DNA from: an uncultured bacterium
Lineage (GTDB): Bacteria > Omnitrophota > Omnitrophia > Omnitrophales > Aquincolibacteriaceae
Direction of reading: 5' to 3'
Length of the DNA: 64,000 bases
NCBI GenBank assembly: GCA_964434115.1
Contig: CAYSSX010000003.1
Span: 268,554-332,553 of the forward strand
A program made the position numbers and the translations under genes. Shown here in pieces: positions 1 through 45,934 of the stretch. The first letter of the stretch is position 1, and every line of letters begins with the position of its first letter. The notes beneath the pieces are model-generated. The model was not told where the DNA came from. It saw only the letters and a program-made list of their open reading frames with translations, and did not search any database.

Positions 1-1
1 G

Positions 2-1015
2 GTCACAGGGAATCCGGTTTTGATGAAACCTGCCGAGCAGTCCGCGTTTCTGGCTTGGCATGTTTGTAAGATTTACCGTGGAGCCGGAATTCCGGAGGGG
101 GTTGTGCAGTTTTTGCCCGGCAGGGGAGAAGAAGCCGGAGACGCTTTGGTCCGCCACCCGGATGTTGCCGTGATTGCCTTTACCGGTTCGCGGGAAACAG
201 GGCTTTCGATTTTGTCCGCAGGCAATGAAAAAGCAGCTACGCAGAAGCTTGTTAAAAAATTTCTTGTGGAAATGGGCGGAAAAAACCCCGCGGTGGTGGA
301 TGCCTCCGCGGATTTTGATCTCGCGGTTCCTGCGGTTCTTCAATCGGCTTTCGGCTATGCGGGGCAGAAGTGTTCGGCGCTTTCCCGGCTTTATGTAGTG
401 GCGGAGGCTTATGATGAATTTTTGAAGCGGCTTGCCGGAGCGGCCCGGGAATTTTCTTTGGGATCCCCGCTTGATCCCGCGAGTTCTTTGGGTCCCGTGA
501 TTGATGAGGCGGCCCGGCAAAAAATCCAAAGTTATATCGATCTGGGCAAAAAGGAAGGGCGTGTTCTTTTTGAAGGAGTTCTTCCTCCCGGGCTGCAGGG
601 GCCTTACCTGGCGCCTATTATTTTTTCGGATCTTCCGGAAACCTCCCGGCTTTTGAGAGAAGAAATTTTTGGTCCGGTTTTGTGCGTGATCCGGGCGCGG
701 GATTTTACCGAGGCCTTAAAACTTGCAGGGAACAGTGAGTATGCCTTAACGGCCGGGGTGTACAGCCGGACGCCGTCGCATTTGGAGATGGCCCGCAGGG
801 CCGAGTTTGCCGGGAATCTTTACCTGAACCGGGGACAGACCGGTGCGGTTGTGGGCCGACAGCCTTTTGGCGGATTTAAACTTTCCGGAGGCGGCACCAA
901 GGCCGGCGGAGTGGACTATCTCAGGGAATTTTATTTTTCGAGAACTGTTTCGGAAAATGTCTCGCGCCACGGTTTTGCGCCGCTTCGCGATGAATCAGGA
1001 AAAGAAGTTAAATAA
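2..1015 (+). CDS. 1-pyrroline-5-carboxylate (L-glutamate gamma-semialdehyde) dehydrogenase, C-terminal ~330 aa; 5' end lies outside the window
   Basis: ALDH superfamily motifs: catalytic Glu in 'EMGGKNPAVVD' and catalytic Cys in 'GQKCSA'. The C-terminal 'QPFGGFKLSGGGTKAGGVDYL' matches the RocA/PruA-type P5C dehydrogenase signature (FGGFKMSGTDSKAGGPDYL). The ORF runs to the window edge in frame. Confidence 0.75.
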   Translation, partial: VTGNPVLMKPAEQSAFLAWHVCKIYRGAGIPEGVVQFLPGRGEEAGDALVRHPDVAVIAFTGSRETGLSILSAGNEKAATQKLVKKFLVEMGGKNPAVVDASADFDLAVPAVLQSAFGYAGQKCSALSRLYVVAEAYDEFLKRLAGAAREFSLGSPLDPASSLGPVIDEAARQKIQSYIDLGKKEGRVLFEGVLPPGLQGPYLAPIIFSDLPETSRLLREEIFGPVLCVIRARDFTEALKLAGNSEYALTAGVYSRTPSHLEMARRAEFAGNLYLNRGQTGAVVGRQPFGGFKLSGGGTKAGGVDYLREFYFSRTVSENVSRHGFAPLRDESGKEVK

Positions 1016-1766
1016 GGGAAAGTCCGCCGTCCGCGATAATCGTCTGCCCGACAATCCACGCGGATTCAGGCATGACAAGAAACTTGACGATTCTTGCAAG
1101 ATCTTCTGGCTGGGCAATGCGCCCGGCGGGTGTGCGTTCAATGACTTTTTGGCGAAAGGAAGCATAGTCCGGAAAGAATTTGAGGGCATCCGTTTCTACA
1201 AGCCCGCCTGAGACCCCGTTGACGCGTATTTTTTTAGAGGCAAGCTCCACGGCAAGATAGCGTACCAGGCTTTCCACCGCAGCCTTTGAAACTCCGATGG
1301 CCCCGTAATTAGGGATAAATTGGCGCGCCCCAAGGCTTGAAAGCGCTATGACGGAACCTCCTCCGCGGCTTTCCATGGAAGGCAGGGCTTTTTGAACCAG
1401 AAGAAGAAAGGCCTTGGCATTGATATCAAGCGAAAGGTCCCACTGATTGGCTTTGAGCTTATGGGTGGGTTTGAAGGCGCCCATGGCCGCGTTATGGATC
1501 AGAATATCAATACCGCCTAAAGCCTGAAGCCCCTGATCCACAAGCGGTCCCAAGGCATCAGGGTCGCCCACGTTGGCTTGTACCGTGACAACCTTTGAAC
1601 CCAGCTTTTGAAGGTCTTCGGCGGTCTTTTTAGCCGCGTCTTCATCCCGGACATAATTGAGAATAATGTCTGCGCCGGCCCCTGCGAGCTCCAGGGCAAT
1701 CGCCCTGCCAATCCCGCGTGAGGCGCCTGTAATAAGGGCGACTTTGTTACTTAAAGGCCTGTTCAT
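1008..1766 (-). CDS. SDR-family enoyl-[ACP] reductase, FabL-like (NADPH-dependent)
   Basis: N-terminal 'KVALITGASRGIGRAIA' Rossmann motif. The catalytic Tyr/Lys spacing is Y-x6-K ('NYGAIGVSKAAV'), typical of FabI/FabL enoyl reductases rather than the Y-x3-K of FabG ketoreductases. The C-terminal 'GGLVETDALKFFP...IADGGLSLI' resembles Bacillus FabL. The first ATG is at 1766; the ORF-track start at 1802 is a TTG. Confidence 0.65.
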   Translation of the reverse strand: MNRPLSNKVALITGASRGIGRAIALELAGAGADIILNYVRDEDAAKKTAEDLQKLGSKVVTVQANVGDPDALGPLVDQGLQALGGIDILIHNAAMGAFKPTHKLKANQWDLSLDINAKAFLLLVQKALPSMESRGGGSVIALSSLGARQFIPNYGAIGVSKAAVESLVRYLAVELASKKIRVNGVSGGLVETDALKFFPDYASFRQKVIERTPAGRIAQPEDLARIVKFLVMPESAWIVGQTIIADGGLSLI

Positions 1767-1831
1767 GGCCGAAAGCTTAGTAATGGAGGAGGTAAAAAGC
1801 AAACAAAAAAATATTCAGGCCTTAAGGGGTG

Positions 1832-1840
1832 TGTTATAAT
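1832..1840 (+). promoter_or_regulatory. Extended -10 promoter element (TGtTATAAT) in the divergent region upstream of the lipid-cluster operon
   Basis: 'gTGtTATAAT' at 1832-1840 lies ~40 nt upstream of the ATGATG start at 1880. No strong -35, which is consistent with an extended -10 promoter. Confidence 0.4.
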
Positions 1841-1879
1841 CCCCGACTCAAAACCCAGACCTGTCAGGCGTGCTGAGGC

Positions 1880-2521
1880 ATGATGATCCGGCAATGGCAA
1901 AGAAAAATCCTGGATTTTCTAGTCCGGCACCACCCGGCTCTTGGCTTGGAAGAGCGGGCGGAAGGTTTTGTTCAGCTTTTTGAAAAGGAATTGCCGAAGG
2001 AAAGCCTGATTCTGGATATCGGCGGAGGGTGGGGATTTTATCATGCTCCTCTTCTTGCGAGGGGACACAAGCACCTTGTGGTGGATGTGATAAAACCCGG
2101 GGTTCAAAAATGTCCCGTTGTGATTTATGACGGCAAGCGCCTCCCGTTCCCGGATCAAAGTTTTGATGTCAGTCTTTTTATTACGGTACTGCATCATATT
2201 CCTGATCCTGAGGCCGTGATTCGTGAAGCACTGAGGGTCACCCGTAAGCGTGTGATTGTGGTGGAAGACCTTTATCACCACGCGGCTGGCCGCTGGTGGA
2301 CCGTCCTGCGGGACCAGATTCTCAATGTAGAGTTCTTCGGACACCCTAAGAACTTTAAGACACGTGAGCAGTGGACAAGCCTTTTTCAAGACCTGGGCGG
2401 CTCGTTGAAGTTTCAGACCGAGGTTCAGACCTGGCTTTCCGGATTCCAGATTTTAAACGGGGTTTTTGTTTTTGATGTGGCCGGCTGTAGAAGTCCCCGC
2501 GAAATTTTGCAGCACGTTTAG
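1880..2521 (+). CDS. Class I SAM-dependent methyltransferase
   Basis: 'LILDIGGGWGFY' glycine-rich SAM-binding motif I; 'VDVIK...YDGKRLPFPDQSFDVSLFITVLHHIPDPEAVIREALRVTRKRVIVVED' is a typical Methyltransf_11/25 core. Confidence 0.6.
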   Translation: MMIRQWQRKILDFLVRHHPALGLEERAEGFVQLFEKELPKESLILDIGGGWGFYHAPLLARGHKHLVVDVIKPGVQKCPVVIYDGKRLPFPDQSFDVSLFITVLHHIPDPEAVIREALRVTRKRVIVVEDLYHHAAGRWWTVLRDQILNVEFFGHPKNFKTREQWTSLFQDLGGSLKFQTEVQTWLSGFQILNGVFVFDVAGCRSPREILQHV

Positions 2522-2538
2522 CAAAAAAGGGTCTTGAT

Positions 2539-2955
2539 ATGGAAGAGCTGCCGCAGACGGTGAACCTTGGCGTGCTTGGAAAAGCCCAAGCCGAGTATCT
2601 TCCTGACGGTAAAGGAATGAAAGCCTCGGGGCGTATTCCCGAAGACCTTGAATGCTTTCAGGATCATTTTCCAGGATTTCCGGTACTGCCGGGCGTTTTG
2701 GCTGTTGAGATTCAACGAAAACTGCGTGATTTTTTCTTTCAAACGAAGGCTCTTCCCGGAGCAGGGGATGAGTTTCGTGAAATAAGAGCTGTTAAATTCG
2801 CTTCTTTTTTAAGACCTGGTGATCCCTGGGAATTTCAGGGCGAAGTGAAAACCGGGCCGGGCGGAGAGAAGGTCTGGAAAGGCCGTCTTTCTTCCGGAGG
2901 CCGCCTTTCAGCGGCTTGTGAACTGGCGTTCGGCGCTCCTGCGCCGGCCGCCTAA
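2539..2955 (+). CDS. FabZ-like 3-hydroxyacyl-ACP dehydratase (hot-dog fold, catalytic His present)
   Basis: 'FQDHFPGFPVLPGVLAVEIQ' matches the FabZ active-site motif (HFPxxPVMPGVL...E). Size 138 aa. Confidence 0.7.
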   Translation: MEELPQTVNLGVLGKAQAEYLPDGKGMKASGRIPEDLECFQDHFPGFPVLPGVLAVEIQRKLRDFFFQTKALPGAGDEFREIRAVKFASFLRPGDPWEFQGEVKTGPGGEKVWKGRLSSGGRLSAACELAFGAPAPAA

Positions 2956-2966
2956 GAACGAGGAGG

Positions 2967-3374
2967 ATGATCGACCTCATGGATAAACAAATTTTTGAAA
3001 AAATTCAGGAAACTTTGGCAAGCGCGCTTGGCGTCGAAAAGACGGAAGTAACGCCGGAAGCATCGCTCACACGTGATCTCGGAGCGGAGTCTATTGACTT
3101 CATCGATATTATTTTCCGGCTTGAGAAGACTTTTGACATTAAGATCCCGAGCGGAGAACTTTTTCCCGGGAATGTTCTGAATAACGAGCGTTTTGTCTCG
3201 GCTGGCCGCGTGACCGATGCCGGGCTTGAGGAGCTGAAAATCCGGATGCCCTATCTTGATGTGGAAACCTTTTCCAAGGATCCCCAGATTTCCAAATTGG
3301 CTGAAGCCTTCACAGTCCAAATGGTGATTAACTATATCCGGGATCGTCTTGCCAAGGAAGCCCCCAAGGCCTGA
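2967..3374 (+). CDS. Acyl carrier protein with a ~45-aa insertion between helix II and helix IV
   Basis: 'TRDLGAESIDFIDIIFRLEKTF' carries the phosphopantetheine-attachment Ser motif (DSL-like 'AESID') followed by helix II. At 135 aa it is unusually long for an ACP. A GAGGAGG Shine-Dalgarno precedes it; the alternative ATG at 2979 cannot be excluded. Confidence 0.7.
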   Translation: MIDLMDKQIFEKIQETLASALGVEKTEVTPEASLTRDLGAESIDFIDIIFRLEKTFDIKIPSGELFPGNVLNNERFVSAGRVTDAGLEELKIRMPYLDVETFSKDPQISKLAEAFTVQMVINYIRDRLAKEAPKA

Positions 3375-3375
3375 G

Positions 3376-3759
3376 ATGAAACTCGCAGGTCTCGGCATCG
3401 ATGTGCTGTCGATTTCGAGGGCTGAAAAGTTTCTCGCTCACCGGACCCGGGAGTCTCTTTCGCGCGTCCTTTGCCCTTCCGAGCAAAAGTTTTTTGCCAA
3501 ACGTCTTTCCGTCCTTCAATTCGCCAAAATATTTACGGCCAAAGAAGCCTTCTTTAAGGCTTCACAAATGCCTCCTTCCGGACTTTATGGCTTTTCCGAG
3601 CTTGAGGTAAAGCTCTTGCCTCAGGAGCGTTTTGAGATAAAATGGCTTCGACCTGCGGGTCTGAAGAAAGGCCCCAAAGCCTGCGGCTGCCATTTTGTGA
3701 GCCCTGGATATGTTGGAGCGCAAGTCATTCTCTGGACGCCCTTTTCGGACGTCCTCTAA
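3376..3759 (+). CDS. acpS: Holo-[ACP] synthase (4'-phosphopantetheinyl transferase, AcpS type)
   Basis: N-terminal 'MKLAGLGIDVLSISRAEKF' matches the AcpS 'GIGxDIVEIxRI' motif. Size ~127 aa. The ATG is 1 nt after the ACP stop, so the two are translationally coupled. Confidence 0.7.
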   Translation: MKLAGLGIDVLSISRAEKFLAHRTRESLSRVLCPSEQKFFAKRLSVLQFAKIFTAKEAFFKASQMPPSGLYGFSELEVKLLPQERFEIKWLRPAGLKKGPKACGCHFVSPGYVGAQVILWTPFSDVL

Positions 3760-3800
3760 CCTGGCGGCTTACCGCCCTTCATACCGTTTGTTGATTCCGG

Positions 3801-4259
3801 ATGCGATGGATTTTGCTTGATGAAGTTGTGGAAGTCCGCGAAGGGGATTCTGCCCTGACTCGCGCCCGTGTCCCCGCCGCCCCTTTCAGTGTTGAAGTCC
3901 TCCTTCTTGAAATGATGGCCCAGACGGGGGGGCTTCTTCTCGGCGCGTCCCATAATTTTCAAAACGACGTGGTTTTTGGGAAAGTCGAAAGCGCTGTTTT
4001 CCAGGGACCCTTTGCTCAAGGCGCTCCGCTTGAAATCTCTGCTGTATCCAAAGAAAGCCGCGAAGAAGGGGGCTGGTTCGAAGCCTGGGTCAGCTCTTCG
4101 GGAAAAGTGCTGGCTGAAAGCCGCTTCTTTCTTGCCAATGCAGGACGCTTGATGCCGGAGCAGAACGTCTCGGTGACTTTTCCGGAACCCTTTCTGCAGC
4201 ATTTCCGTGTCCGTGAAAAAGTAAAACGTGCCGCCGGTTCTTCTCAGGGTGACTTGTGA
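3801..4259 (+). CDS. Hot-dog fold dehydratase-like protein lacking the canonical catalytic His (probable partner subunit of the FabZ-like protein)
   Basis: 'VEVLLLEMMAQTGGLL' resembles the FabZ/FabA central helix, but the HxxxxPxxPG motif is replaced by 'RVPAAPFS'. Comparable to the ApeI/ApeP pair in aryl-polyene clusters. The stop overlaps the next gene's GTG start (GTGA). Confidence 0.5.
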   Translation: MRWILLDEVVEVREGDSALTRARVPAAPFSVEVLLLEMMAQTGGLLLGASHNFQNDVVFGKVESAVFQGPFAQGAPLEISAVSKESREEGGWFEAWVSSSGKVLAESRFFLANAGRLMPEQNVSVTFPEPFLQHFRVREKVKRAAGSSQGDL

Positions 4260-5527
4260 CCGGGCGCCGGCGTGTTGTGATTACAGGTCTGGGTGTTATC
4301 ACCGCCTGCGGGAACGGGTGGAAAGCTTACTGGGAAAATGCACGCCAGGGTCAAAGCGTTCTGGCTCCTTCACGGGAAATATTTCCAGGGGCACACCCCG
4401 TGCGCCTGCTCGGTGAAATTTCCGGATTCACTCCCGGAGAATTGATCAAGGCACGAAAGTCGATCAAGGTGATGTCCCGGGATATTCAATTTGCCGTCGC
4501 GGCAAGTTCTCTTGCCATGCAGGACGCTGGTCTTTCTGCAGAACAGCTGGAGCTTGACCGCTCGGGTGTCTCCATCGGCGCGGTTGCCCCGATCAATAAT
4601 GACCTGGATGAAATCGGAGCCGGAATTTTTAAAGGCTTTGATACTGAAGGGCGTTTGCACATGAGCCGCTTTGGCAAGGACGGTATTCCTGCGCTTTTTC
4701 CTCTCTGGTTCCTCAAATATATTCCCAACATGCCGGCCTGCCATGTTTCCATTGCGCATGGGTTCAGGGGGCCCAACAACACTCTGAGTACCTCGGTCGC
4801 GGCTGGCCTTCAGGCGCTTGGAGAGGCTGCCCGGGTGATTGAGCGCGATGACGCGGACTGCATGCTGGCCGGAGGAACGGATTCAGAAACCAACCCGCTC
4901 GGTCTGTCGCGTTTTGAAATGCTGGGGCTTTTATCCCGGCGAACCGAACTGACGGCGCCTTTTGACGCGGCCTCCGATGGATTATTTCCCGGCGAAGGCG
5001 CGGGCGTTCACGTTTTGGAAAGTCTTGCGCACGCCAAGGACCGGGGCGCGCGCATTTACGCGGAGATTACAGGCTATGGGTCTTCGGGAGACGGAGATCA
5101 TGACCCTCTGAACCCTCAAGATTTTTCAGGCCGCTTTCGGGCCATGAAACAAGCCTTGAAAGACGCCCAGCTTGAGTTCGCGGACGTGGATGCTGTTTTT
5201 GCCTGCGGATCCGGCATTCCCGCGCATGATCGATTGGAAGCGCAGGCGCTTAAAGCCTTGGGAGCGCCGAAGCTTGTTACTTTTTTGAAACCCGTGGCAG
5301 GGCATTTAATGTCCGCTTCGGGCGCGGTTGAAACAGCTGCCGCCTGCGCGGCCCTGCAGGAAGGCCTTTTGCCGCCGGCTGCGGGATTCAAAAAATTCGC
5401 GGAAGACTGTGAGCTGCCTTTGATTCCGGCCCCGAGAGACGCAGCGATTGAGACCGTCATGGTCAATGCGTTTGGTTTGAGCGGCCAGAATGTTTCGCTG
5501 ATTCTTAAAAAATTTTCCGGAGTTTAA
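4256..5527 (+). CDS. Beta-ketoacyl synthase family protein lacking the catalytic Cys and first His (chain-length-factor-like KS partner)
   Basis: Full-length FabF-like thiolase fold ('VVITGLGVITACGNGW', 'DADCMLAGG', 'KPVAGHLMSASGAVE'). At the active-site position FabF 'ATACTSG' reads 'STSVAAG' (Cys to Val). FabF 'NAHGTST' reads 'FACGSGI' (first His lost). The Lys and second His are retained. GTG start. Confidence 0.75.
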   Translation: MTGRRRVVITGLGVITACGNGWKAYWENARQGQSVLAPSREIFPGAHPVRLLGEISGFTPGELIKARKSIKVMSRDIQFAVAASSLAMQDAGLSAEQLELDRSGVSIGAVAPINNDLDEIGAGIFKGFDTEGRLHMSRFGKDGIPALFPLWFLKYIPNMPACHVSIAHGFRGPNNTLSTSVAAGLQALGEAARVIERDDADCMLAGGTDSETNPLGLSRFEMLGLLSRRTELTAPFDAASDGLFPGEGAGVHVLESLAHAKDRGARIYAEITGYGSSGDGDHDPLNPQDFSGRFRAMKQALKDAQLEFADVDAVFACGSGIPAHDRLEAQALKALGAPKLVTFLKPVAGHLMSASGAVETAAACAALQEGLLPPAAGFKKFAEDCELPLIPAPRDAAIETVMVNAFGLSGQNVSLILKKFSGV

Positions 5528-5528
5528 A

Positions 5529-6821
5529 GTGAATTCCAAACGAAGAGTCGTCATTACGGGGTTTGGATCCGTGTCGCCTTTGGGGCTTTCCACAAACGAG
5601 TTGTGGGAAAATCTTAAGGCTGGGCGTTCGGGGATTAAACGCATTTCACTTTTTGAAGCGGAAGGGTTTCCGGTTCAGATCGCCGGAGAAGTCAAAGGCT
5701 TTGACGCGGAAAAATTTTCCCGCGCAGATCCGGCTCTTCAGCATGCCGGAAGGGGAACACTCTTCGCGCTTCAGGCCGCCGAGGAAGCCGTGGCTATGTC
5801 CGGACTGAGCTTTAATCAGGGGAACCCGGAGAGGATTGGGATCTTTTTTGGAGCGGGAGATAACGGGAATAATTTTCCGGGATTTTGCCGTTCGCTTTAC
5901 GAAGCAAGAAATCCTTCCTCCGGGCATGTGGGCTTTACCGGATATATTGAGGCGGCTTCCAGAAATCTGAAAAGTTTTGAAGAACTGGGAATCCAGCCTT
6001 CCAGGACGCTCGCGCATTTGGCGGCGCGCTTTGGGGTTCAAGGCCCGGTCGCCAACACGATTACAGCTTGCGCAGCCTCTTCCCAGGCCATTGGGGAGGG
6101 CTCAGAATGGATTCGCCGGGGAGATGCGGATGTGGTGATTTCGGGCGGTACTCACGCGATGGTTTACCCGCTGGCTTTAACCGGATTCAGTCTTCTGACA
6201 GCCCTTTCTCCGAGAAACTCAGAACCAGAGCGAGCCTCCCGGCCTTTTGATAAAAACCGAGACGGATTTGTGATCGCGGAAGGTGCCGGCGTTGTCATTC
6301 TTGAAGAGCTGGAGCATGCCCTGAAGAGAAAAGCGCCCATTTTGGGGGAGCTTGCCGGTTATGGCTCCACGGGAGACGCTTACCGCATGACCGATATGGA
6401 TCCGGAAGGCAAAGGTGCCTGCCGGGCCATGGAGATAGCCCTTCGGAAAGGGGGGCTTTCCCCCTCAGAAATCGGCTATATTAACGCCCATGGAACGGCG
6501 ACCCAGGTCAATGATGCAATTGAAACACTTGTCATTAAGAAGGTTATGGGCGAGAATGCACCCCGGATTCCGGTTAGTTCCATCAAGTCCATGTTAGGGC
6601 ACATGATTGCCGCGGCCGGAGCTGTCGAGCTTATCGCGTGCCTTTTGGCCATCCGCGATCAGCTTCTTCCTCCGACCATCAATTACGAAGAGCCGGATCC
6701 TGCCTGTGATCTTGATTATGTACCGAATAAGGCGCGCGAAGCTAAAGTGGACGCCGCGCTTTCAAATTCTTTTGGTTTTGGCGGTCAAAATATCTGTTTG
6801 GCGGTGAAACGTTATGGCTGA
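5529..6821 (+). CDS. Beta-ketoacyl-[ACP] synthase (FabF/KAS II family, catalytically intact)
   Basis: Active-site Cys in 'ITACAASSQAIG'; His in 'NAHGTATQVND'; Lys and His in 'SIKSMLGHMIAAAGAVE'; C-terminal 'NSFGFGGQN'. GTG start 1 nt after the previous stop. Confidence 0.85.
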   Translation: MNSKRRVVITGFGSVSPLGLSTNELWENLKAGRSGIKRISLFEAEGFPVQIAGEVKGFDAEKFSRADPALQHAGRGTLFALQAAEEAVAMSGLSFNQGNPERIGIFFGAGDNGNNFPGFCRSLYEARNPSSGHVGFTGYIEAASRNLKSFEELGIQPSRTLAHLAARFGVQGPVANTITACAASSQAIGEGSEWIRRGDADVVISGGTHAMVYPLALTGFSLLTALSPRNSEPERASRPFDKNRDGFVIAEGAGVVILEELEHALKRKAPILGELAGYGSTGDAYRMTDMDPEGKGACRAMEIALRKGGLSPSEIGYINAHGTATQVNDAIETLVIKKVMGENAPRIPVSSIKSMLGHMIAAAGAVELIACLLAIRDQLLPPTINYEEPDPACDLDYVPNKAREAKVDAALSNSFGFGGQNICLAVKRYG

Positions 6822-7914
6822 AACAAAAAATCTTTTTATTACCGGTGTGACAGGGACCCTGGGCAAGGAATTGATCCGGGAACTTTTGCGCACAACCAAT
6901 GACCGTCTGGTGGTCCTGATCCGAGGGAAGAACCGTCTTTCCGCGGAAGACCGGCTCCGTAAAATTCTGAGTCTTCAAGGTTTGGAAGCGGAAGCAGGCC
7001 AGCGGATTCAAGCCGTTGAAGGCGACATTACCCAGCCTGGCTTTGGGCTTGCCCCGGAAGTCCGGGACCGCTTGATTCGTGAGACCGACCGGTTCTTCCA
7101 CATCGCGGCTTTGACGGCGCTGAATGGAAGCCGCGAAGATTGTTTCCGCATTAATCTTGGAGGAACTCTTGAGGCCTTGAAGCTTGCCTGGAGATTTTAC
7201 CGTGAAGGAAAATTGGAGCGGTTTTTTTACTTCAGCACGGCCTATGTCGCGGGAAGCCTTCAGACCTATTGTTCAAAAGAAAACAGCCTTCCTGAACAGC
7301 CGGCGCATGCGAACTTCTATGAGTCCAGCAAATATGAATCTGAAAAGCGCGTTCGCGAAGCCTTGGCAGAGGGGCTGCCCGTGACGATTTTCCGCCCCAG
7401 TATCGTGGTGGGCAATTCCGTGACTGGTGAGACCTCGGAATTTAATGTGATTTACCCGTTCCTTAAACTGTTTGCACACCGCATCATCACTGCGCTTCCT
7501 TCCCGCGTGGAGAATTCTTTCAATATTGTGCCGATCGACTTTGTGATCCGCGCCGCGCTTGAAATCGCTTCCCATGAGGACTCTGTCGGGAAAGGGTACC
7601 ACCTGGTCACCCAGAACCCCCCGACGATTGAGCTTCTTCTCGAAGTGGCCCGGCAGGAGTACCCTCAGATTCCGGCGATTGAAGTGATTGACCCTAAGGA
7701 TTTTGACCGGTCAGCGCTTTCGCCCCAGGAACAATTTGTTTATGACATGATGACGCCTTATTTGGGCTATCTAAACGATAATCTTACCTTTGAAACTACG
7801 CAGACAGAGGCCGCCCTGGCCGGAACAGGCGTGGAGTTTCCCAAAACCGACGGCGATTTTCTGCGGAGGCTTTTGGCGTATGCCGTGGATGCGGGTTACC
7901 TGGTGGTTTCCTAA
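6814..7914 (+). CDS. Stand-alone thioester reductase / fatty acyl-ACP(CoA) reductase (NAD-binding_4, 'male sterility' family)
   Basis: 'LFITGVTGTLGKELIREL' (TGxTGxLG Rossmann) and 'YESSKYESEK' (YxxxK) in the arrangement typical of NRPS/PKS terminal reductase domains and fatty acyl reductases. The start ATG overlaps the KS stop (ATGGCTGA). Confidence 0.7.
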   Translation: MAETKNLFITGVTGTLGKELIRELLRTTNDRLVVLIRGKNRLSAEDRLRKILSLQGLEAEAGQRIQAVEGDITQPGFGLAPEVRDRLIRETDRFFHIAALTALNGSREDCFRINLGGTLEALKLAWRFYREGKLERFFYFSTAYVAGSLQTYCSKENSLPEQPAHANFYESSKYESEKRVREALAEGLPVTIFRPSIVVGNSVTGETSEFNVIYPFLKLFAHRIITALPSRVENSFNIVPIDFVIRAALEIASHEDSVGKGYHLVTQNPPTIELLLEVARQEYPQIPAIEVIDPKDFDRSALSPQEQFVYDMMTPYLGYLNDNLTFETTQTEAALAGTGVEFPKTDGDFLRRLLAYAVDAGYLVVS

Positions 7915-9086
7915 CGCCAAACGGTTTGCTTGCGCGTGAAAGCCATGCGCGCGGCGTCCAGAAGTATTCCTGCGATGATGGCGGCCGCCAGAACGTGAAG
8001 CCATGCGAACCGGCGCGGCCCCCGGATAATTTCATACGCCTTCCAAGCCGTTGCCAGAATAATTCCTGCCGTAAACAGCGCCAAAGCCCATGACGTTTGA
8101 GGATACGCCCCGCCCGCGGGAAACCCTGTCAGCATGAGACCGATCCAGACAAAAGGGATGACGGAAAACAAAACGAGGCTTGAAGCCCTTGCCAGCAAGG
8201 GCAGTGTTTTGCGCTCAAATGAATGGAGGTAAATCCTTCTCCATCCCCGCCAGATGGCCCCGAAAGAATCGTACATCCTTGTTCCAAAGAAATCTGTTCC
8301 AATAGCCACCGCGCAGGGGAGCCCCGCCTCTTTGGCTTTTTTAAAGAGCGCGAAGTCTTCCAGAAACTCGGCCTTTACGGCAGCGTGCCCGCCCGTTTTT
8401 TCATACACCGACCGGTGCATCAGCAGATACTGTCCGTTTCCAAAATAAATTTTTTGCTCGGGGTCATTCACTTTTTCAACAGGAAACCATAGGCCCATCA
8501 AAGCCATGGCAACCGGCTGCAGGACTATTTCCCAAAAACCGCTGGCAAGGCACCGGGGAAGAAGTGTCAGCATCAAGGCCCCTCTTTTTTCCATGAGCCC
8601 GAGCGAGGCCCGGAGCGATTCCGGCTCATGCCGCGTGTCTGCATCCGTGAAAAGAAGCCATTCGCCTTGCGCGTAAGGGGCCCCAAAGGCAAGCGCGTGA
8701 TTTTTTCCGGTCCAGCCCGCAGGGGCAGGGGGGGAATTCAAGTAACTCAGCCGGGAGGCCCCTCGATCCGTCCCAGGATTCCCGGCGGGGCGTGCACCCA
8801 AAGCGAGGAGAATTTCTTCCGTACGGTCCGTCGAGTTGTCATTGATGACGAGGATTTCAAAATCCGGGTAATCGATAGCCAGCAGGCCTTCAACGCACAT
8901 CCGGATATTGCTTTCTTCGTTTTTTGCGGGAACGAGAATCGAAACTTTATTCCGCCCTCCCGAAAGAATGCCGTTACTTAATCGTGGCGCCCGGAAAAGA
9001 GTGACAAGGGCGCAGACGGAGCGGTTGATCCACACGGCCGCTGATGTCAAAAAGAAAATGAGGACGGGGTCAGGAGTTATTTTCAT
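7911..9086 (-). CDS. Membrane-anchored family 2 glycosyltransferase
   Basis: 'VSILVPAKNEESNI...ILVINDNSTDRTEEIL' GT-A N-terminal motif; 'LLFTDADTRHEP' DxD motif; hydrophobic C-terminal segments. Convergent with the reductase gene; the stops overlap by 4 nt. Confidence 0.7.
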   Translation of the reverse strand: MKITPDPVLIFFLTSAAVWINRSVCALVTLFRAPRLSNGILSGGRNKVSILVPAKNEESNIRMCVEGLLAIDYPDFEILVINDNSTDRTEEILLALGARPAGNPGTDRGASRLSYLNSPPAPAGWTGKNHALAFGAPYAQGEWLLFTDADTRHEPESLRASLGLMEKRGALMLTLLPRCLASGFWEIVLQPVAMALMGLWFPVEKVNDPEQKIYFGNGQYLLMHRSVYEKTGGHAAVKAEFLEDFALFKKAKEAGLPCAVAIGTDFFGTRMYDSFGAIWRGWRRIYLHSFERKTLPLLARASSLVLFSVIPFVWIGLMLTGFPAGGAYPQTSWALALFTAGIILATAWKAYEIIRGPRRFAWLHVLAAAIIAGILLDAARMAFTRKQTVWR

Positions 9087-9166
9087 AGCGGCACAGCATA
9101 ACCTAATCTTAGAACAGTGAAAAACTTTATTTCCGGATCTCTGACCGCTGACACTGAGGATTTTTT

Positions 9167-11506
9167 TTGTTAAAATATTTTTCCATGCCGCACCTATTTC
9201 GAAGACTTGCCCAGATTGTTCTTGTCAGCCGCTGGCCCCTTTTGCTGGGGCTTGGGATCATCACCCTTATCTGCGGATTTAAAGCGGTTCAGCTTCAGAT
9301 TGACCCCACGGTTGAGATGATGCTTGCCAAAAACACCAAAGAATACCGCGATTACGACGCCTACCGCACGACTTACGGGAGCGACTCGATTATTTTGGCG
9401 GCGATGGCCACGGACAATGTCTTTACGCCAACCAACCTTGCACTTTTAAAACGCGTCACGGAAGCCTGTCTGAAGTTTGAACAAGTGGAAAGCGTTCTCA
9501 GTCTTCCCGTAGTTTCCGATATCCGCCATAAAAGGTTCGGCGTGAAAATTGTTCCCGCCCTTGAAGGGGTGATGGAGGGGAGCCGCCCGATGGATGAGGC
9601 TCGCAGCGATATCCTCTCGAACGAACTTTATCTTAACAATCTCGTTTCCCATGACGGAAAGACCGCGAATTTAATCATTCGCGTGAAAACCTCCAAGGAC
9701 AAGGAAAGCGGGGTTCTGATCGAACATCTGAAGGCCATTTTCCGGACCGAGGAAAAACACGGCGGGGTTAAATTTTATATGGCAGGCGCCCCCGTCGAGC
9801 AGTATGAATTTGTAAGGCTTATCCGTAAAGACCAGTTCACTTTTGTCCCGATGATTACGGCGTTTTTAATCGCGGCGACCTTTTTATTTTACCGGAGCAT
9901 TCCGTGCGTCATCCTGGCCCTTTCCAAAGTCTTTGTCACGCTGGCCTGGACTTTTGGTTCTATTGCCTTCTTTGGGCAGGAACTGAATCTCGTCACCTCT
10001 CTTCTTGCGCCGGTTCTTATGATCATCACGGTGGTGAACTCCATTCATTTTATGAATTTGTTTTTTGATATCCGCGCGCATCATCCCAGCCTGCGGATGT
10101 CCGTTGTTTTGACCATGGAACAGCTGGGGCTTCCGAGCCTGCTCACGCACGCCACGACGGTGCTGGGTTTTCTTTCCTTGGCCTTGGACAGTGTTCCCGC
10201 GATCCGGAGTTTTGGTCTCTTTGCCGCGCTTGGGTCTTTTTACTCTTTTCTGGTTGCGATGCTTTTGACACCCGTACTGCTTTTGTCCCTTCCCTACAGA
10301 GCGAGACCCCGTGATTTCAATGACCGGCATTTTTTTAACAAGATCCTTGTGGGGTTCCTTGAGAAGCTTGAACACCGGTGGAAGTGGGTGATTCTGGCCA
10401 TTGTTGTTGTTTCCGTGGCTTTTTCGGCGGCGGGAATTAAAAAACTCAATGTGGATACGAATATCGTCAAGCAGCTGAAGCCCGATTCTCCGCTCGCCGT
10501 TTCTACGCGATTCATCGACGAGCATATTTTGGGCGTTTACACGCTGGGGTTTGTTCTCAGAACGCGTGACGGTTCGACGATCGTGAATCAGGAAACCCTG
10601 AAGCGCCTGGATGCTTTTAAAACCTTTCTTGAACAGATGCCTGAAATTTCAAACGTGAACAGCATCACGACGCTGATTAAAAGAATTCACCTTGCCCGCA
10701 AGCAGAGTCCCGAGGCCTACGTCATTCCGGGACAGGTAGACTTGGAAAGATACTTTAAAGGGATTACCGCTGACGATAACCCTGAAACCTGGAGCATGAT
10801 GTCGCGGGATTTGAAGGAGGTCCGCCTTCAGGCCCAGATGAAAGCGGTCGGAACCCGGGAGGGGAAGCTTGTCGAAAAAAAGGCCCGCGCCTATATGCAG
10901 AAAAAACTTTCGCCCTATTTTGAGACCCTGATGACGGGCCATGTGGTGCTTCTCGGCAGAATGGCTGAGAATCTTGTCCATTCGCAGATGATGAGTTTTG
11001 GTTTTGCCTTTGCGTCTATTTTTCTGGTCATTGCCTTGATCTTCCGCTCTCTTAAAATGGGGCTCCTTGCGGCAGTGCCCAACATTGTTCCGATTCTTTT
11101 GACCTATGGCATTATGGGATTCCTTCATGTTGAGCTTTCCACCTCAACCGCGATGATCTCAAGTATTGTGCTGGGACTTGTCGTAGACTCCTCTATCCGG
11201 TTTTTGCACCGCTTCCAGCTGGAGTTTGAAAAAAGAGGCCATTATCTTCAGGCGCTGCACCATACCTACCGGAATACGGGGCAAGCCATGTTCATTTCAA
11301 CCTTGATTCTGGTGGTGGGGTTTGGAACCAGTGTTTTCGCCGGTTTCCGTCCCACGATTCAGTTTGGGGTTTTGACAAGCCTAACTATTTTTCTATCCAT
11401 GATTTGCACACTTCTCGTTCTTCCGGTTCTGGTGGTGATGACCCGGCCTTTTGGCCGGCAGCGGCTTTTCCGGAAGCAGAAAGAAGGGGCCGACCCGTTT
11501 CGTTGA
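9167..11506 (+). CDS. MMPL-family RND-type lipid exporter
   Basis: 779 aa with two hydrophobic blocks, each followed by a large soluble loop (MMPL/HpnN-like architecture). TTG start at 9167 with GAGGA 6 nt upstream; the alternative ATG is at 9185. Confidence 0.8.
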   Translation: MLKYFSMPHLFRRLAQIVLVSRWPLLLGLGIITLICGFKAVQLQIDPTVEMMLAKNTKEYRDYDAYRTTYGSDSIILAAMATDNVFTPTNLALLKRVTEACLKFEQVESVLSLPVVSDIRHKRFGVKIVPALEGVMEGSRPMDEARSDILSNELYLNNLVSHDGKTANLIIRVKTSKDKESGVLIEHLKAIFRTEEKHGGVKFYMAGAPVEQYEFVRLIRKDQFTFVPMITAFLIAATFLFYRSIPCVILALSKVFVTLAWTFGSIAFFGQELNLVTSLLAPVLMIITVVNSIHFMNLFFDIRAHHPSLRMSVVLTMEQLGLPSLLTHATTVLGFLSLALDSVPAIRSFGLFAALGSFYSFLVAMLLTPVLLLSLPYRARPRDFNDRHFFNKILVGFLEKLEHRWKWVILAIVVVSVAFSAAGIKKLNVDTNIVKQLKPDSPLAVSTRFIDEHILGVYTLGFVLRTRDGSTIVNQETLKRLDAFKTFLEQMPEISNVNSITTLIKRIHLARKQSPEAYVIPGQVDLERYFKGITADDNPETWSMMSRDLKEVRLQAQMKAVGTREGKLVEKKARAYMQKKLSPYFETLMTGHVVLLGRMAENLVHSQMMSFGFAFASIFLVIALIFRSLKMGLLAAVPNIVPILLTYGIMGFLHVELSTSTAMISSIVLGLVVDSSIRFLHRFQLEFEKRGHYLQALHHTYRNTGQAMFISTLILVVGFGTSVFAGFRPTIQFGVLTSLTIFLSMICTLLVLPVLVVMTRPFGRQRLFRKQKEGADPFR

Positions 11507-11583
11507 CAGTTTCTCCCTCCCCGTACTATAATCCCCTCTATTTATTTTTCTTAAGTCGTTAAAAATCAAGGGTCTAGGAACTT

Positions 11584-12999
11584 ATGGAAAAACTGCTTAC
11601 CCCGTACGGCGGGCGTTTTCTGCCTAAAGAAGCCGTCTCCTCCATCATCGAAAATTTTCAAGAAGGCCGGAAGGTCCGAACCGCGGGCCGGCTGATGGCC
11701 AAACGTATTATGGGTAAAAGCGCTTTTTTTGATTTAAAGGACGAGTTTGCGCGGATGCAGCTTTATGTGAAAAAGGATATTGTCGGTGATGCTCTTTTTG
11801 AGGAGATTCTGGGGCTTTCGCTTGGGGATATTGCGGGCATTGAAGGCGAGCTGTTTGTTTCCAAGGCCGGTGAAAAAACTATCCGGGTTGAAAAGCTGAC
11901 GCTTCTTTCCAAAATTGTCCGGACGCTACCGGAAAAGTGGCATGGCCTGAAAGATGTTGAAACCCGCTACCGGCATCGCTACGTGGATCTGATTGTCAAT
12001 GATGATGTCCGTAAGACGTTTAAGGCGCGCAGCCAAATTCTCCGGGATATCCGGCGTTTCCTTGATGAACGCGGTTTCATGGAAGTGGAAACGCCCATGA
12101 TGCAGCCGATTCCCGGGGGCGCCCGCGCGAAGCCTTTCGAGACGCACCACAATTCTTTAGGGATTGACCTCTACTTGCGCGTGGCCCCTGAACTTTACTT
12201 AAAGCGTCTTCTTGTGGGCGGGTTTGAAAAGGTTTATGAGATCAACCGCAATTTCCGCAACGAAGGCATTTCGGTCCGGCACAACCCTGAGTTCACGATG
12301 CTGGAACTCTATGAGGCTTATGCTGATTACCATGACATGATGGCCATTACCGAAGAGCTGATCGCGGGGCTGGTGTTTGCCCTTCATGGGACTTATGAAA
12401 TTCCTTTTGGGGATAAAACGATCAATTACAAAACCCCCTGGAAGAGAATCAGTTTTTATGACGCGCTCAAGGAAAGCACAGGGATGGATTTCCGGACCTG
12501 CGATGTTCGTAAGGCGGCTCGCGAGCTGCACGTGCCTTTTTCAGAAAAGGACGAAGACATTGATGTGCTCAATGAGGTCTTCGGCGAAAAAGTCGAGGCT
12601 TCGCTTTGGGATCCGACTTTTGTGATTGATTACCCGACAGTCATGACCCCCTTGGCCAAGGCCAAGGACGAGGACCCTTCTCTGGTCTACCGGTTTGAAC
12701 TTTTTGTGGCGCGCATGGAAATCGCCAATGCCTTTTCAGAGCTGAACGATCCGCATGTTCAGCGGCAGCGCCTTGAAGAACAGCGCAAAATGATTGGCGA
12801 GCATAAGGAAATCGATGAAGACTTTCTTACGGCCCTTGAGTATGCCATGCCTTCCGCGGGCGGTCTTGGGATCGGAATTGACCGCCTTGTGATGTTGTTA
12901 ACCAATCAAAGCTCGATCCGGGACGTTATTTTATTCCCCCAGATGAAACCCGAATCGGGAGCCCCTAAAAAAATCGAAAACGAAGAATCGGTTTCGTAA
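11584..12999 (+). CDS. lysS: Lysine--tRNA ligase (class II)
   Basis: '[23 protein letters not shown]' OK-fold anticodon-binding region; '[16 protein letters not shown]' motif 2; '[16 protein letters not shown]' motif 3. Confidence 0.9.
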
Positions 13000-13030: not shown

Positions 13031-14332
13031 ATGGGTTTTGAATCCTTTATCGCGATGAAACATTTACGTGCCCGCCGCCAGACAGGGTTTATTTCCCTCA
13101 TCACGGTCATTTCCGTGCTGGGTGTGGGGGTGGGAGTCATGGCCCTTATCGTGGTGATGGCCGTGATGAGCGGTTTTGACCGGGAGCTCAAATCAAAGAT
13201 CGTGAATGTCCAGCCGCATCTGCGCATCGAGAAAGTCGGCGGTCTGGACAACGTGGATGCTGAAATTGAAAAAATCAAAGAGCATGGCATTCAGGGAATT
13301 AAAACACTTTCCGCCTACATCGAAGGGCAGGGGATTCTCCGCTCCAGCGCAAACGCGACAGGTGTTCTGGTGAAGGGGATGGATACTGAGCGCGAAGACA
13401 TGGGCGTCTATCAGCAGCACATGATTTTCGGAATGCTGGACCTGACTTCCCAGCAGGTCTCGACCACGCACCGGAAAATGCTCTTTTTCAAAGAAACGAG
13501 AGAGGAAAGCCTGGGGGGGGTTGTGATCGGGGAAACCCTTGCCGACCTTCTTCAGGTCAGAATCGGTGATCGCGTGGATTTGATTTCACCCTTCAAGGAT
13601 CCGGGCAATAACCTTCTGGCGGTCCGCGCGGAAAGCCGGACTTTTCTTGTCAAAGGAATTTTCCGCGTGGGGATGAATGACTTTGACACCTCGCTTGCGC
13701 TCATCAGTCTTCACGAGGCCCAGAATGTTTACCGGATGGGAACCCGGGTTTCGGGGATCAGCCTGCGGTTCAACGACGTGGATGACGCCCAGAAGTGGAA
13801 ATATTTTCTGCAGAGTTACTTTACACCGGACTACTATCTCCGGTCATGGTACGACATGAACCATAATTTTTTTCAGGCCCTGAAAGTGGAGAAGTCGGTG
13901 ATGACCATTCTTCTCGCGCTTATCATTCTTGTCGCGGCATTCAATATTGTGTCCACCTTGATCATGATCGTCATGGAGAAGACCAAGGACATCGGTATCC
14001 TGAGAGCACTCGGGGCCACTAGCGCGAGCATCCGCCGGATTTTTATGATGGAAGGGTTCAGTGTCGGAGTTTTTGGCGTGGCCTTTGGTGCTGGCGCCGG
14101 TCTGCTGTTGGCTTTTAACCTTAATCCGGTGTCGGATTTTCTTAAACAAACCACGGGGCTTGAGGTTTTTCCAAGCGACATTTACTTCTTTGACAAAATT
14201 CCCGCGGAAGTCCATGCCCCCGATGTGGTGGTTGTAGTGGCCTTTGCCATGCTTGCTTCGATCCTTGCCGGTATTTATCCCGCCGGACGTGCGGCTGCGC
14301 TGGATCCCGTGGAGGCCCTGCGTTATGAGTAG
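13031..14332 (+). CDS. lolE: Lipoprotein-releasing system permease (LolC/LolE, FtsX/MacB family)
   Basis: N-terminal 'AMKHLRARRQTGFISLITVISVLGVGVGVMALIVVMAVMSGF' is a typical LolC/E start; large periplasmic domain; C-terminal FtsX-like 4-TM region. Confidence 0.8.
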   Translation: MGFESFIAMKHLRARRQTGFISLITVISVLGVGVGVMALIVVMAVMSGFDRELKSKIVNVQPHLRIEKVGGLDNVDAEIEKIKEHGIQGIKTLSAYIEGQGILRSSANATGVLVKGMDTEREDMGVYQQHMIFGMLDLTSQQVSTTHRKMLFFKETREESLGGVVIGETLADLLQVRIGDRVDLISPFKDPGNNLLAVRAESRTFLVKGIFRVGMNDFDTSLALISLHEAQNVYRMGTRVSGISLRFNDVDDAQKWKYFLQSYFTPDYYLRSWYDMNHNFFQALKVEKSVMTILLALIILVAAFNIVSTLIMIVMEKTKDIGILRALGATSASIRRIFMMEGFSVGVFGVAFGAGAGLLLAFNLNPVSDFLKQTTGLEVFPSDIYFFDKIPAEVHAPDVVVVVAFAMLASILAGIYPAGRAAALDPVEALRYE

Positions 14333-17622: not shown

Positions 17623-17728
17623 GTAGTCAATGGTTTGCCGGAAAAGTCGAAAATTAGAGGATGGCAGTAACAGGGTTAGTTTAACGAAATTATCATATCC
17701 GATATTGTTTTAACCGCGGAGGTTTGCG

Positions 17729-21121: not shown

Positions 21122-21165
21122 GCAAGGATTTTTTTGCCCCCGGAAGACGGAAACGCTGAAAAATT

Positions 21166-21930: not shown

Positions 21931-21962
21931 ACCTTTTTAGATCAAAGAACAGGCAGGGAGCA

Positions 21963-45842: not shown

Positions 45843-45934
45843 AAAGCCTCCTGAAAAGGAGGTTAAGCTAGCATACAACCCGGGGAATCACAAGCGAATC
45901 CAGGCTGGTTCAATAAATGACCTGGCATTGTGCA

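Follow-up and report, generated by a model that had tools for sequence, protein, structure and literature searches.

A syntenic thioester reductase operon in Omnitrophota as a candidate pathway to long-chain alkyl glycosides

Several described gene clusters in bacteria resemble the locus analysed here. The heterocyst glycolipid (hgl) islands of Nostocales cyanobacteria combine a ketosynthase (KS), a chain length factor (CLF), an acyl carrier protein (ACP), a ketoreductase (KR), a dehydratase (DH), an enoyl reductase (ER), a thioester reductase (TR), a 4'-phosphopantetheinyl transferase (PPTase), a glycosyltransferase, and a transporter, and lead to fatty-alcohol glycosides (PMC11804610, PMC10569477). 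Cluster I of anammox bacteria (KustE3603-3608) contains amxACP, amxFabZ, an amxFabFmut/amxFabF2 heterodimer, and a B12-radical S-adenosylmethionine (SAM) enzyme; the FabF2/FabFmut pair starts synthesis by decarboxylation of malonyl-ACP, and the same bacteria make ether-bound ladderane alcohols (bioRxiv 10.64898/2026.05.19.726425). The rhizobial cluster acpXL-fabZXL-fabF2XL-fabF1XL-adhA2XL-lpxXL makes a C26-C34 chain for the outer membrane (PMC11901934), and the aryl polyene (APE) clusters of Gram-negative bacteria hold a type II KS/CLF (PMC8358021). Here, we analysed a stretch of 64,000 nucleotides from an uncultured bacterium of the phylum Omnitrophota (contig CAYSSX010000003.1, positions 268,554 to 332,553; hereafter the window), in which a stand-alone TR at 6814-7914 is the last gene of an eight-gene operon and lies next to a gene for a membrane glycosyltransferase of family 2 (GT2). 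We propose, with a probability of roughly 0.5, that this locus encodes a phylum-wide pathway to a long-chain alkyl glycoside, which would be assembled by type II parts and released reductively.

The first-pass annotation of the window had named heterocyst glycolipid synthesis as the closest characterised analogue, and the analogy is apt, as the hgl islands hold nearly the same list of enzymes (PMC11804610). Both would follow the same logic, with an envelope lipid rather than an antibiotic as the product. However, the hgl enzymes are polyketide synthases (PKSs) with KS, acyltransferase (AT), and KR domains (PMC11804610, PMC10569477), while the Omnitrophota parts are discrete proteins derived from FabF and FabZ. 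The hgl system uses an ABC system (HgdBC/DevBCA) in a cyanobacterial host and its synthases are multidomain, whereas the Omnitrophota locus has a resistance-nodulation-division (RND) pump and neither a KR nor an AT in the cluster. The Omnitrophota GT2 is of the GT21/HpnB/CruG type, apparently a different family from HglT, with HglT and HglB compared by their published descriptions. The hosts differ as well: Omnitrophota is an anaerobic, uncultured phylum of the Planctomycetes-Verrucomicrobia-Chlamydiae (PVC) group, and its locus is core and apparently constitutive, while hgl is developmental. We regard the Omnitrophota locus as an analogue, not a member, of the hgl islands.

The proposal starts from the TR. 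The protein at 6814-7914 has the length and the motifs that the first-pass annotation had reported, with 366 aa, TGVTGTLG at residues 10-17, and YESSK at residues 169-173; T13, G14, L16, G17, S141, T142, Y169, and K173 are invariant among 25 homologues. The window proteins were searched against Pfam (gathering scores) and NCBIfam (NCBI curated cut-offs). The TR matched Pfam NAD_binding_4 (PF07993) at 2e-54 with 184.9 bits (cut-off 20.1), residues 9-247 covering positions 1-257 of the 258-position profile, and the match to Pfam Epimerase was far lower (3e-16, 60 bits). It reached 18.4, 22.7, and 24.8 bits with the NCBIfam models of GalE, RmlB, and RmlD, whose cut-offs are 224-365. The thioester-reductase domain model TIGR01746 aligned end to end (residues 7-363 on 2-371 of 371, 8.6e-46), and the second NCBIfam match was PRK07201, a 657-position model named "SDR family oxidoreductase" (SDR, short-chain dehydrogenase/reductase). 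Among solved structures in the PDB, the best relative is the R domain of MxaA (1e-32), followed by a type I PKS reductase (4e-29), and the others include carboxylic acid reductases and a fatty acyl-CoA reductase. The R domain of MxaA has the same fold and catalytic residues as the TR, but is fused to its synthase. At the level of sequence, these matches confirm the protein as a member of the thioester-reductase/fatty-acyl-reductase family, and its product is predicted to be an aldehyde or, most likely, a primary alcohol. The ATG start codon of the TR gene falls within the final codons of the KS gene, the two genes sharing 8 nt (ATGGCTGA, 6814-6821), and the stop codons of the convergent TR and GT2 genes overlap by 4 bases at 7911-7914.

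The operon has eight tightly packed genes on the plus strand and is flanked by three further genes that matter for the proposal:

1008-1802, minus strand: FabL-type enoyl-ACP reductase (FabL), divergent from the operon
1880-2521, plus strand: class I SAM methyltransferase (MT), first gene of the operon (Methyltransf_11, 3.9e-14)
2539-2955, plus strand: FabZ/FabA-like hotdog dehydratase subunit (DH1; Pfam FabA 1.2e-6, NCBIfam FabZ 4.8e-8)
2967-3374, plus strand: ACP of 135 aa (PP-binding 1.1e-11, residues 11-66)
3349-3759, plus strand: AcpS-type PPTase (Pfam ACPS 1.9e-12), found in 24 related loci
3801-4259, plus strand: second FabZ-like hotdog protein (DH2; NCBIfam FabZ 3.6e-7), found in 32 loci
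4256-5527, plus strand: dead FabF paralogue (CLF) with the N and C domains of ketoacyl-synt
5529-6821, plus strand: active-type FabF-like KS (FabF equivalog 478.4 bits, cut-off 493.75)
6814-7914, plus strand: stand-alone TR, 366 aa, eighth and last gene of the operon
7911-9086, minus strand: membrane GT2, candidate head-group transferase (Glycos_transf_2, 2.5e-22)
9167-11506, plus strand: HAE3/MMPL-type RND transporter, candidate lipid exporter (MMPL 7e-31, with a sterol-sensing domain)

The conservation of this arrangement was evaluated in a sample of 80 loci from a scan of GTDB species representatives, onto which all genes of the window were mapped. The context of each relative locus (labelled with L and a number) spans 10 kb on either side, and the denominators differ with the sequence available (e.g., 39, 42, and 34). 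Homologues of the TR with 55-74% identity number in the hundreds and, where the organism is named, nearly all come from metagenome-assembled genomes (MAGs) of Candidatus Omnitrophota. A search for assembled contigs that encode the TR yielded a single Logan contig of 1.4 kb, too short to extend the window. The locus is syntenic in about 50 Omnitrophota species. The KS gene lies directly upstream of the TR gene in all 51 Omnitrophota-type loci, and the two genes overlap in 41 of 47, in agreement with the earlier description of the TR as a free-standing gene coupled to the KS. Of the 39 loci with enough upstream sequence, 38 contain MT, ACP, DH2, CLF, and KS together. The adjacent, convergent membrane GT2, which had also been noted before, is retained within 4 kb downstream of the TR in 40 of 42 loci. 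Searches for homologues of the CLF and the GT2 were saturated with Omnitrophota proteins among the best 120 hits and revealed no context outside the phylum. The KS-TR-GT2 arrangement is no chance juxtaposition. Elsewhere, the window consists of core genes (Mla, IspDF, several aminoacyl-tRNA synthetases, Suf, GuaAB, DnaE, DnaG, RpoD, and PyrB). As such, the cluster is an old trait of the phylum that has been inherited vertically, rather than a mobile island of secondary metabolism.

The gene order is kept over window positions 1-20200 across about 50 species (L002-L063), with the cluster proteins being only 50-60% identical. The kept order is SecA, Lnt, often an aldo-keto reductase, FabL, the operon, GT2, RND where present, LysS, LolC, LolD, IlvE, McsA, McsB, and ClpC. 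A correlation of the identities of the TR with those of its neighbours, as a test of co-inheritance, was uninformative because the identities to a single reference were saturated.

Relatives of the TR outside the phylum suggest what it may deliver. The nearest of these are 46-48% identical over the full length, including a TR with 48% identity in a Defluviicoccus MAG (L055, 1781-13373). In this locus and in one from a Bryobacterales MAG (L059, 2171-19322), a stand-alone TR follows directly after a single reducing type I PKS of about 2600 aa with the domains KS-AT-DH-cMT-ER-KR-ACP (cMT, C-methyltransferase). In L059, the gene next after the TR encodes a Sulfotransfer_3 enzyme; in L055, a methyltransferase gene lies between the two. 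Because a sulfotransferase needs a hydroxyl, TRs of this clade are most simply read as working in trans on a thioester bound to an ACP and delivering a primary alcohol, to which the head group would then be added. These two loci share the stand-alone TR and the head-group enzyme with Omnitrophota, but rely on a type I synthase where Omnitrophota have the type II module and on a sulfotransferase where they have the GT2, so that the GT2 takes the position of the head-group enzyme. Taken by themselves, both loci look like alkyl-sulfate lipid clusters, and L059 further carries an MMPL-LolA fusion transporter, a flavin-containing monooxygenase (FMO), an SDR, and a hydrolase. The contexts of the TR homologues in the Tautonia and Acidobacteriota loci (L046, L048, and L061) were uninformative.

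The KS and CLF are 32% identical and their genes are adjacent. The KS matches the PRK07314 subfamily at 462.9 bits (cut-off 387), and all orthologues with residues aligned at these positions retain Cys181, His321, His358, and Lys353. In the PDB, it scores 375 bits with FabF, 283 with the actinorhodin (act) KS, and 224 with Iga11, and it reaches 212.9 bits with PRK07103, the model of APE-type KSs (cut-off 445). The best PDB matches of the CLF are canonical FabF proteins (237 bits). Its active-site Cys is replaced by Val; all 39 orthologues have S, A, V, or F at this site, never C or Q, and the first catalytic His (His1) is mostly Asn. Judged by these matches, the pair derives from FabF and the system resembles a fatty acid synthase (FAS) rather than a PKS, with a KS predicted to be active and a CLF predicted to be catalytically dead in all orthologues. 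On the model of the act, Iga, and anammox pairs, the two proteins would form a heterodimer in which the CLF probably sets the chain length. The first-pass annotation had spoken of a type II assembly line; the proteins are discrete, as this implies, but they make up a FabF-derived, FAS-like module and not an accessory type II PKS. The CLF of aromatic type II PKSs carries an active-site Gln for decarboxylative priming. The locus does not fit a system of this kind, with no Gln in any CLF orthologue and a KS that scores higher with FabF than with the act KS.

The other operon proteins fit a specialised FAS-like module. The ACP matches PDB ACPs in two parts, with residues 10-64 on their positions 3-57 and residues 115-128 on 62-75, and between the helix II/III region and helix IV it carries about 50 additional residues (65-114). 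This insertion, as well as the DLGAESID motif, recurs in all 34 Omnitrophota orthologues, and several residues of the insertion are conserved. The insertion may be a docking element for KS/CLF or TR. The PPTase gene, as annotated, overlaps the ACP gene, and its true start is probably downstream of 3349. DH1 conserves the catalytic-His motif DHFPGxPVLPGVL (28 sequences); DH2 has no Pfam match and keeps an LLLEMMAQTGG motif without the HFPG His motif, and is probably the partner of DH1. The MT, present in 39 related loci, reaches the cut-off of no NCBIfam equivalog, and its PDB matches are generic only. No thioesterase was found in the cluster by Pfam and NCBIfam annotation.

The divergent FabL gene is found at the same position in 33 related loci. 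Its product matches the NCBIfam FabL equivalog at 2.1e-92 (308.9 bits, cut-off 328) and PDB 3oic, an NADPH enoyl-ACP reductase, at 7e-71 (next match 6e-44), and has the Y-x6-K motif as NYGAIGVSK. By these features, we take it to be a true FabL enoyl reductase, and it may be the housekeeping ER of the cell, shared with the pathway. The possibility that this FabL-like SDR supplies the missing KR was ruled out by the same enoyl-reductase motif and PDB match.

The GT2 exceeds the cut-off of Glyco_transf_21 (PF13506, the ceramide glucosyltransferase family; 45.2 bits, cut-off 21.7), and its best NCBIfam models are HpnB (2e-38, 132.4 bits, cut-off 379.25) and CruG, a carotenoid 2'-O-glycosyltransferase model (2.3e-31, 109.1 bits, cut-off 600). 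None of its NCBIfam matches is a polyprenyl-phosphate glycosyltransferase family. It has at least three hydrophobic helices (8-26, 304-322, and 360-378) and DAD at residue 148, and the AlphaFold model (pLDDT 91.5) shows long helices at 7-32, 294-320, 330-353, and 358-384. In Foldseek, the best TMq was 0.61, with hyaluronan synthases, compared with 0.40 for GtrB/ArnC, and GtrB (sll0501) in the PDB was matched at an E-value of 0.004 only; the enzyme is not of the dolichol-phosphate mannose synthase type, which the first-pass annotation had raised as a competing housekeeping identity, nor an undecaprenyl-phosphate sugar synthase. The fold search places the GT2 only among membrane-integrated GT2s, because the PDB has no solved member of the CruC, CrtQ, HpnB, or GT21 families. 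More than 700 homologues were found; the best 120, where the source names the organism, are almost entirely from Omnitrophota, and homologues carry the labels chlorobactene glucosyltransferase or diaponeurosporenoate glycosyltransferase (JGI, Prokka). These matches assign the GT2 to a paralogous family of its own, not an HpnB or CruG equivalog, which belongs with the lipid-acceptor GT2s (GT21, HpnB, CruG/CruC, and CrtQ-like). Like these, it combines a GT-A domain bearing a DxD motif with membrane helices at the N- and C-termini.

Among the related loci, the interval between TR and GT2 takes up additional genes. A membrane protein of the FA_desaturase family, orthologous at 55-65% identity, is encoded there in L005 (11073-12047), L008 (9751-10842), L010 (5428-6423), and L012 (3823-4764); no NCBIfam subfamily fits these proteins, which could be desaturases or hydroxylases. 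L041, which like one other locus lacks the usual GT2, has three B12-radical SAM genes and a different GT2 after its TR; the best NCBIfam matches of the three are HpnJ for two and BchE for one, all under cut-off. The TR-GT2 interval behaves like a site for lipid or head-group tailoring. At the other end, a B12-radical SAM gene heads the operon in L044 (3260-4894), L045 (3304-4959), L049 (3270-4877), and L058 (4019-5632); TIGR04072, the "ladderane-type" model "lipid biosynthesis B12/radical SAM", is the weak best match in two of the three scanned and a close second in the third.

B12-radical SAM genes stand directly after the TR in L041 (11153-16703) and L053 (10329-11674), with HpnJ as the best match for most of them (at most 353 bits). 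In 13 loci of one Omnitrophota subgroup (L019, 11126-11485, and 12 others), a Lys/Ser-rich protein of about 117 aa with a signal-peptide-like N-terminus is encoded between TR and GT2.

The RND transporter matches MMPL at 107.8 bits (cut-off 20.5) in two stretches and has at least ten hydrophobic segments; it scores 1.9e-61 (208 bits, cut-off 351.9) with TIGR00921, the HAE3 model, and 3e-22 with HpnN. A scan of window positions 900-11700 for promoters and terminators found nothing above chance except two sites, a consensus promoter-like site upstream of lysS and a 10-of-12 site upstream of the RND gene.

From these components, we infer the substrate and product of every step, as well as the link from TR to GT2 and the export, and it is gene position that suggests glycosylation by the GT2 and export by the RND pump. 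The ACP with its unusual insertion would be the dedicated carrier, made holo by the AcpS-type PPTase of the cluster. The heterodimer of the active KS and its dead partner would build or elongate the chain with malonyl units and the DH1/DH2 pair would dehydrate it, with ketoreduction (FabG) and malonyl transfer (FabD) borrowed from the housekeeping FAS and enoyl reduction performed by the adjacent FabL. The product on the dedicated ACP would be a long, mostly saturated acyl chain; saturation is favoured, though not settled, by the similarity to FabF, the ER next to the operon, and the desaturase-family inserts. The MT would tailor the chain, and some lineages would add the desaturase-family or B12-radical SAM enzymes. 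The KS-coupled TR would then free the ACP thioester with NAD(P)H to give an aldehyde, most likely a primary alcohol, the membrane GT2 would add a sugar to the hydroxyl at the inner membrane, and the HAE3 RND pump, where present, would move the alkyl glycoside toward the outer envelope. The confidence differs among these steps. Reductive release of the chain from the ACP by the TR is highly probable, the odds that the GT2 glycosylates the released alcohol are about even, and export of the glycoside by the RND pump is a tentative assignment that we regard as somewhat doubtful. The broader idea that all Omnitrophota share, as a core lipid of their envelope, an alkyl glycoside with a long or very long chain and no glycerol is speculative and rather unlikely.

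Several points weigh against the proposed pathway. The scores with TIGR01746, HpnB, CruG, and HAE3 are all under the curated cut-offs; for the TR, TIGR01746 gives 156.8 bits with a cut-off of 213.35, which may be explained by the model having been trained, as we believe, on domains fused to nonribosomal peptide synthetases (NRPSs) or PKSs. SecA, Lnt, LysS, LolCD, IlvE, McsAB, and ClpC are equally syntenic, and since housekeeping LysS is just as conserved next door, adjacency argues only weakly for the GT2 and RND pump working with the TR. Both genes are on transcription units separate from the operon. The first-pass annotation had proposed glycosylation and export of the reduced product: the GT2 is indeed of the lipid-acceptor type, but what links TR, GT2, and RND is gene position. 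Likewise, the MMPL exporter that it named is an MMPL/HAE3 RND transporter, but the gene is found in only 17 of the 34 loci with enough downstream sequence, and its membership in the lipid system is uncertain. Reductive release to an aldehyde or alcohol, which had also been claimed, fits the TR family, while the choice between these two end points cannot be read from the sequence, and in L055 and L059 the hydroxyl used by the sulfotransferase could be another one. No KR, FabD (malonyl transferase), or loading enzyme is encoded in the cluster, and therefore the origin and length of the chain are guesses.

The same points bear on the best-surviving alternative, in which the fatty aldehyde or alcohol made by the operon feeds another sink, such as alkyl-ether glycerolipids or wax-type lipids, and GT2 and RND are unrelated genes in an inherited order. 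This is rather improbable, although the synteny of the housekeeping genes is equally strong, the GT2 gene is convergent, and the RND gene is separately transcribed and absent in half of the loci. Homologues of the ether-lipid reductase "ElbD" were found in 93 of 267 Omnitrophota MAGs in a lipid survey of the Black Sea (PMC11868695), and we suspect that these homologues are the TR described here. The ether-bound ladderane alcohols of anammox bacteria, which are fellow members of the PVC superphylum, point in the same direction. However, no alkyl-dihydroxyacetone phosphate (alkyl-DHAP) synthase, AGPAT, or other ether-lipid gene is present among the annotated conserved neighbours, with unconserved open reading frames covered by sampling only, and the GT2 family acts on hydroxyl or carboxyl groups of lipids. 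Furthermore, the GT2 stays by the TR despite insertions, the gap attracts lipid-tailoring genes, and a different GT2 occupies the place in L041.

A second alternative is that the KS/CLF builds a specialised chain de novo from malonyl-ACP (polyunsaturated, polyene, or remodelled), which TR and GT2 would finish to a pigment-like or otherwise specialised lipid. Such chains have been proposed for APE clusters and for the "ladderane-type" FabF-pair clusters of anammox bacteria and Desulfotalea. Highly reducing type II PKSs typically have a KS/CLF heterodimer and a pair of hotdog dehydratases, a combination that is also predicted for this locus. A single APE cluster, directed at an envelope lipid, brings together a dehydratase heterodimer, a methyltransferase, a GT2-like enzyme, and an exporter of the MMPL/RND type. 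In anammox bacteria, FabFmut and FabF2 are encoded in the order seen in the window, and Cys has likewise changed to Val. Further support comes from the TIGR04072-like B12-radical SAM genes heading the operon in L044, L045, L049, and L058, from the carotenoid-glycosyltransferase labels on GT2 homologues, from the lack of a KR in the cluster, and from antiSMASH "ladderane" clusters reported in Omnitrophota MAGs (PMC9902471). We nevertheless consider this alternative unlikely, as the KS/CLF is closer to the FabF of FAS than to act, Iga, or APE-type proteins (213 of the 445 bits required by PRK07103), and a genuine enoyl reductase is adjacent in most loci. Window positions 1-11600 encode neither an adenylating or aryl-starter enzyme nor a thioesterase or a homologue of phytoene desaturase. 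Radical SAM genes are missing from the window and most loci, those that occur score far under cut-off, and the desaturase-family insertion suits a saturated substrate. The APE comparison in particular breaks down, with no adenylating enzyme, aryl starter, second ACP, dedicated KR, or thioesterase in window positions 1-11600; a TR stands in place of the thioesterase, an ER is adjacent, and the KS is far under the APE-type model.

The likeness to anammox Cluster I deserves attention, since both have a dead FabF (Cys to Val) just upstream of an active FabF, a special ACP, and a FabZ in a FAS-like lipid cluster, and some Omnitrophota relatives add B12-radical SAM genes as Cluster I does. In contrast, Cluster I lacks TR, GT2, and methyltransferase, and the window lacks a phytoene-dehydrogenase homologue and a radical SAM gene. 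The PDB 9s5h heterodimer (chains B and C, two different "3-oxoacyl-ACP synthase" proteins), which may be the anammox FabF2/FabFmut pair, is among the better matches of both proteins, with 308 bits to the KS and 142 to the CLF, but both are nearer to canonical FabF (375 and 237 bits) and show no specific affinity to 9s5h. The anammox and Omnitrophota KS/CLF systems are probably parallel inventions. The FabF/FabFmut-like architecture also probably explains the "ladderane" reports in Omnitrophota (PMC9902471). The rhizobial cluster has in common with the Omnitrophota locus a dedicated ACP and FabZ, tandem FabF paralogues, and the lack of a ketoreductase and malonyl transferase; its chain is transferred by LpxXL to lipid A, while the Omnitrophota chain would be reductively released and glycosylated.

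That the locus is a plain housekeeping type II FAS, with the reductase playing an unrelated role, is very unlikely. The KS is just under the FabF cut-off, FabL, the FabZ-like proteins, ACP, and AcpS are all FAS components, and the locus lies within the core genome. However, FabD, FabH, and FabG are absent from the locus, the second KS is dead in every species, the ACP has 135 aa with an insertion and is not a canonical AcpP, and the TR gene overlaps that of the KS in 41 of 47 loci. One survey predicted that Omnitrophota MAGs can synthesise fatty acids (PMC8542988), which we take to mean that the missing genes lie elsewhere; no fab genes were found in the supplements of an Omnitrophota genomics paper. 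The last alternative, an NDP-sugar epimerase or dehydratase at 6814-7914 that prepares the donor sugar of the GT2, shares the extended SDR fold and gives weak matches to Epimerase, GDP_Man_Dehyd, RmlD, and HpnA, but is close to refuted, since NAD_binding_4 outscores Epimerase by 184.9 to 60 bits, the top solved homologues are thioester and carboxylate reductases, the gene is coupled to the KS and not to the GT2, and its relatives follow PKS ACP domains.

Parts of the system have appeared in the literature before. A catalogue of type II PKSs lists KS-CLF pairs from Candidatus Omnitrophica (PMC10132072), while a literature search linking Omnitrophota with thioester reductase returned no paper and the Omnitrophota genomics papers examined, PMC8542988 among them, do not describe the locus. 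Complete Omnitrophota genomes, 176 in number, have been reported (bioRxiv 10.64898/2026.06.07.730766). New here are the eight-gene operon ending in a TR, the FabF-derived KS/CLF, and the phylum-wide synteny. Omnitrophota are widespread, mostly ultra-small, and uncultured. Since about 50 sampled species keep this gene set embedded in their core genome, an optional secondary metabolite is an unlikely product, and the operon probably specifies a basic component of the envelope. If the product is an alkyl glycoside, it would be a candidate lipid biomarker of the phylum for geochemists and the outcome of a second, independent "reduce, then glycosylate" route built from discrete FAS parts, and the locus would be a tractable relative of the unsolved anammox FabF/FabFmut lipid clusters. 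If it is also a core lipid of the phylum, it would represent a type II counterpart of the heterocyte glycolipids and a chemotaxonomic marker in anoxic waters and aquifers, and might be part of the unusual cell surface of Omnitrophota. Spanning about 6 kb, or 7.2 kb once the GT2 gene is included, the operon is compact enough for a direct test by heterologous expression.

Two features elsewhere in the window are worth mentioning. The window start truncates an aldehyde dehydrogenase at 20-1015, which corresponds to the C-terminal half of the bifunctional PutA; the full-length copy of 980 aa in L002 matches PDB 5ur2 at 5e-224. The enzyme does not belong to the lipid cluster. It was considered as an oxidiser of the TR product and rejected, because it is half of a PutA and is not conserved at the locus. 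Finally, a protein-quality-control module of McsA, McsB, and ClpC, mainly known from Gram-positive bacteria, is found beside systems that clearly belong to a diderm envelope, namely LolCD, MlaEFD, a SurA-like chaperone, and an OmpL-like porin; listed by position, the module and these systems lie at 13031-15038, 16043-20200, 20306-22763, 44880-45878, and 59992-61281.

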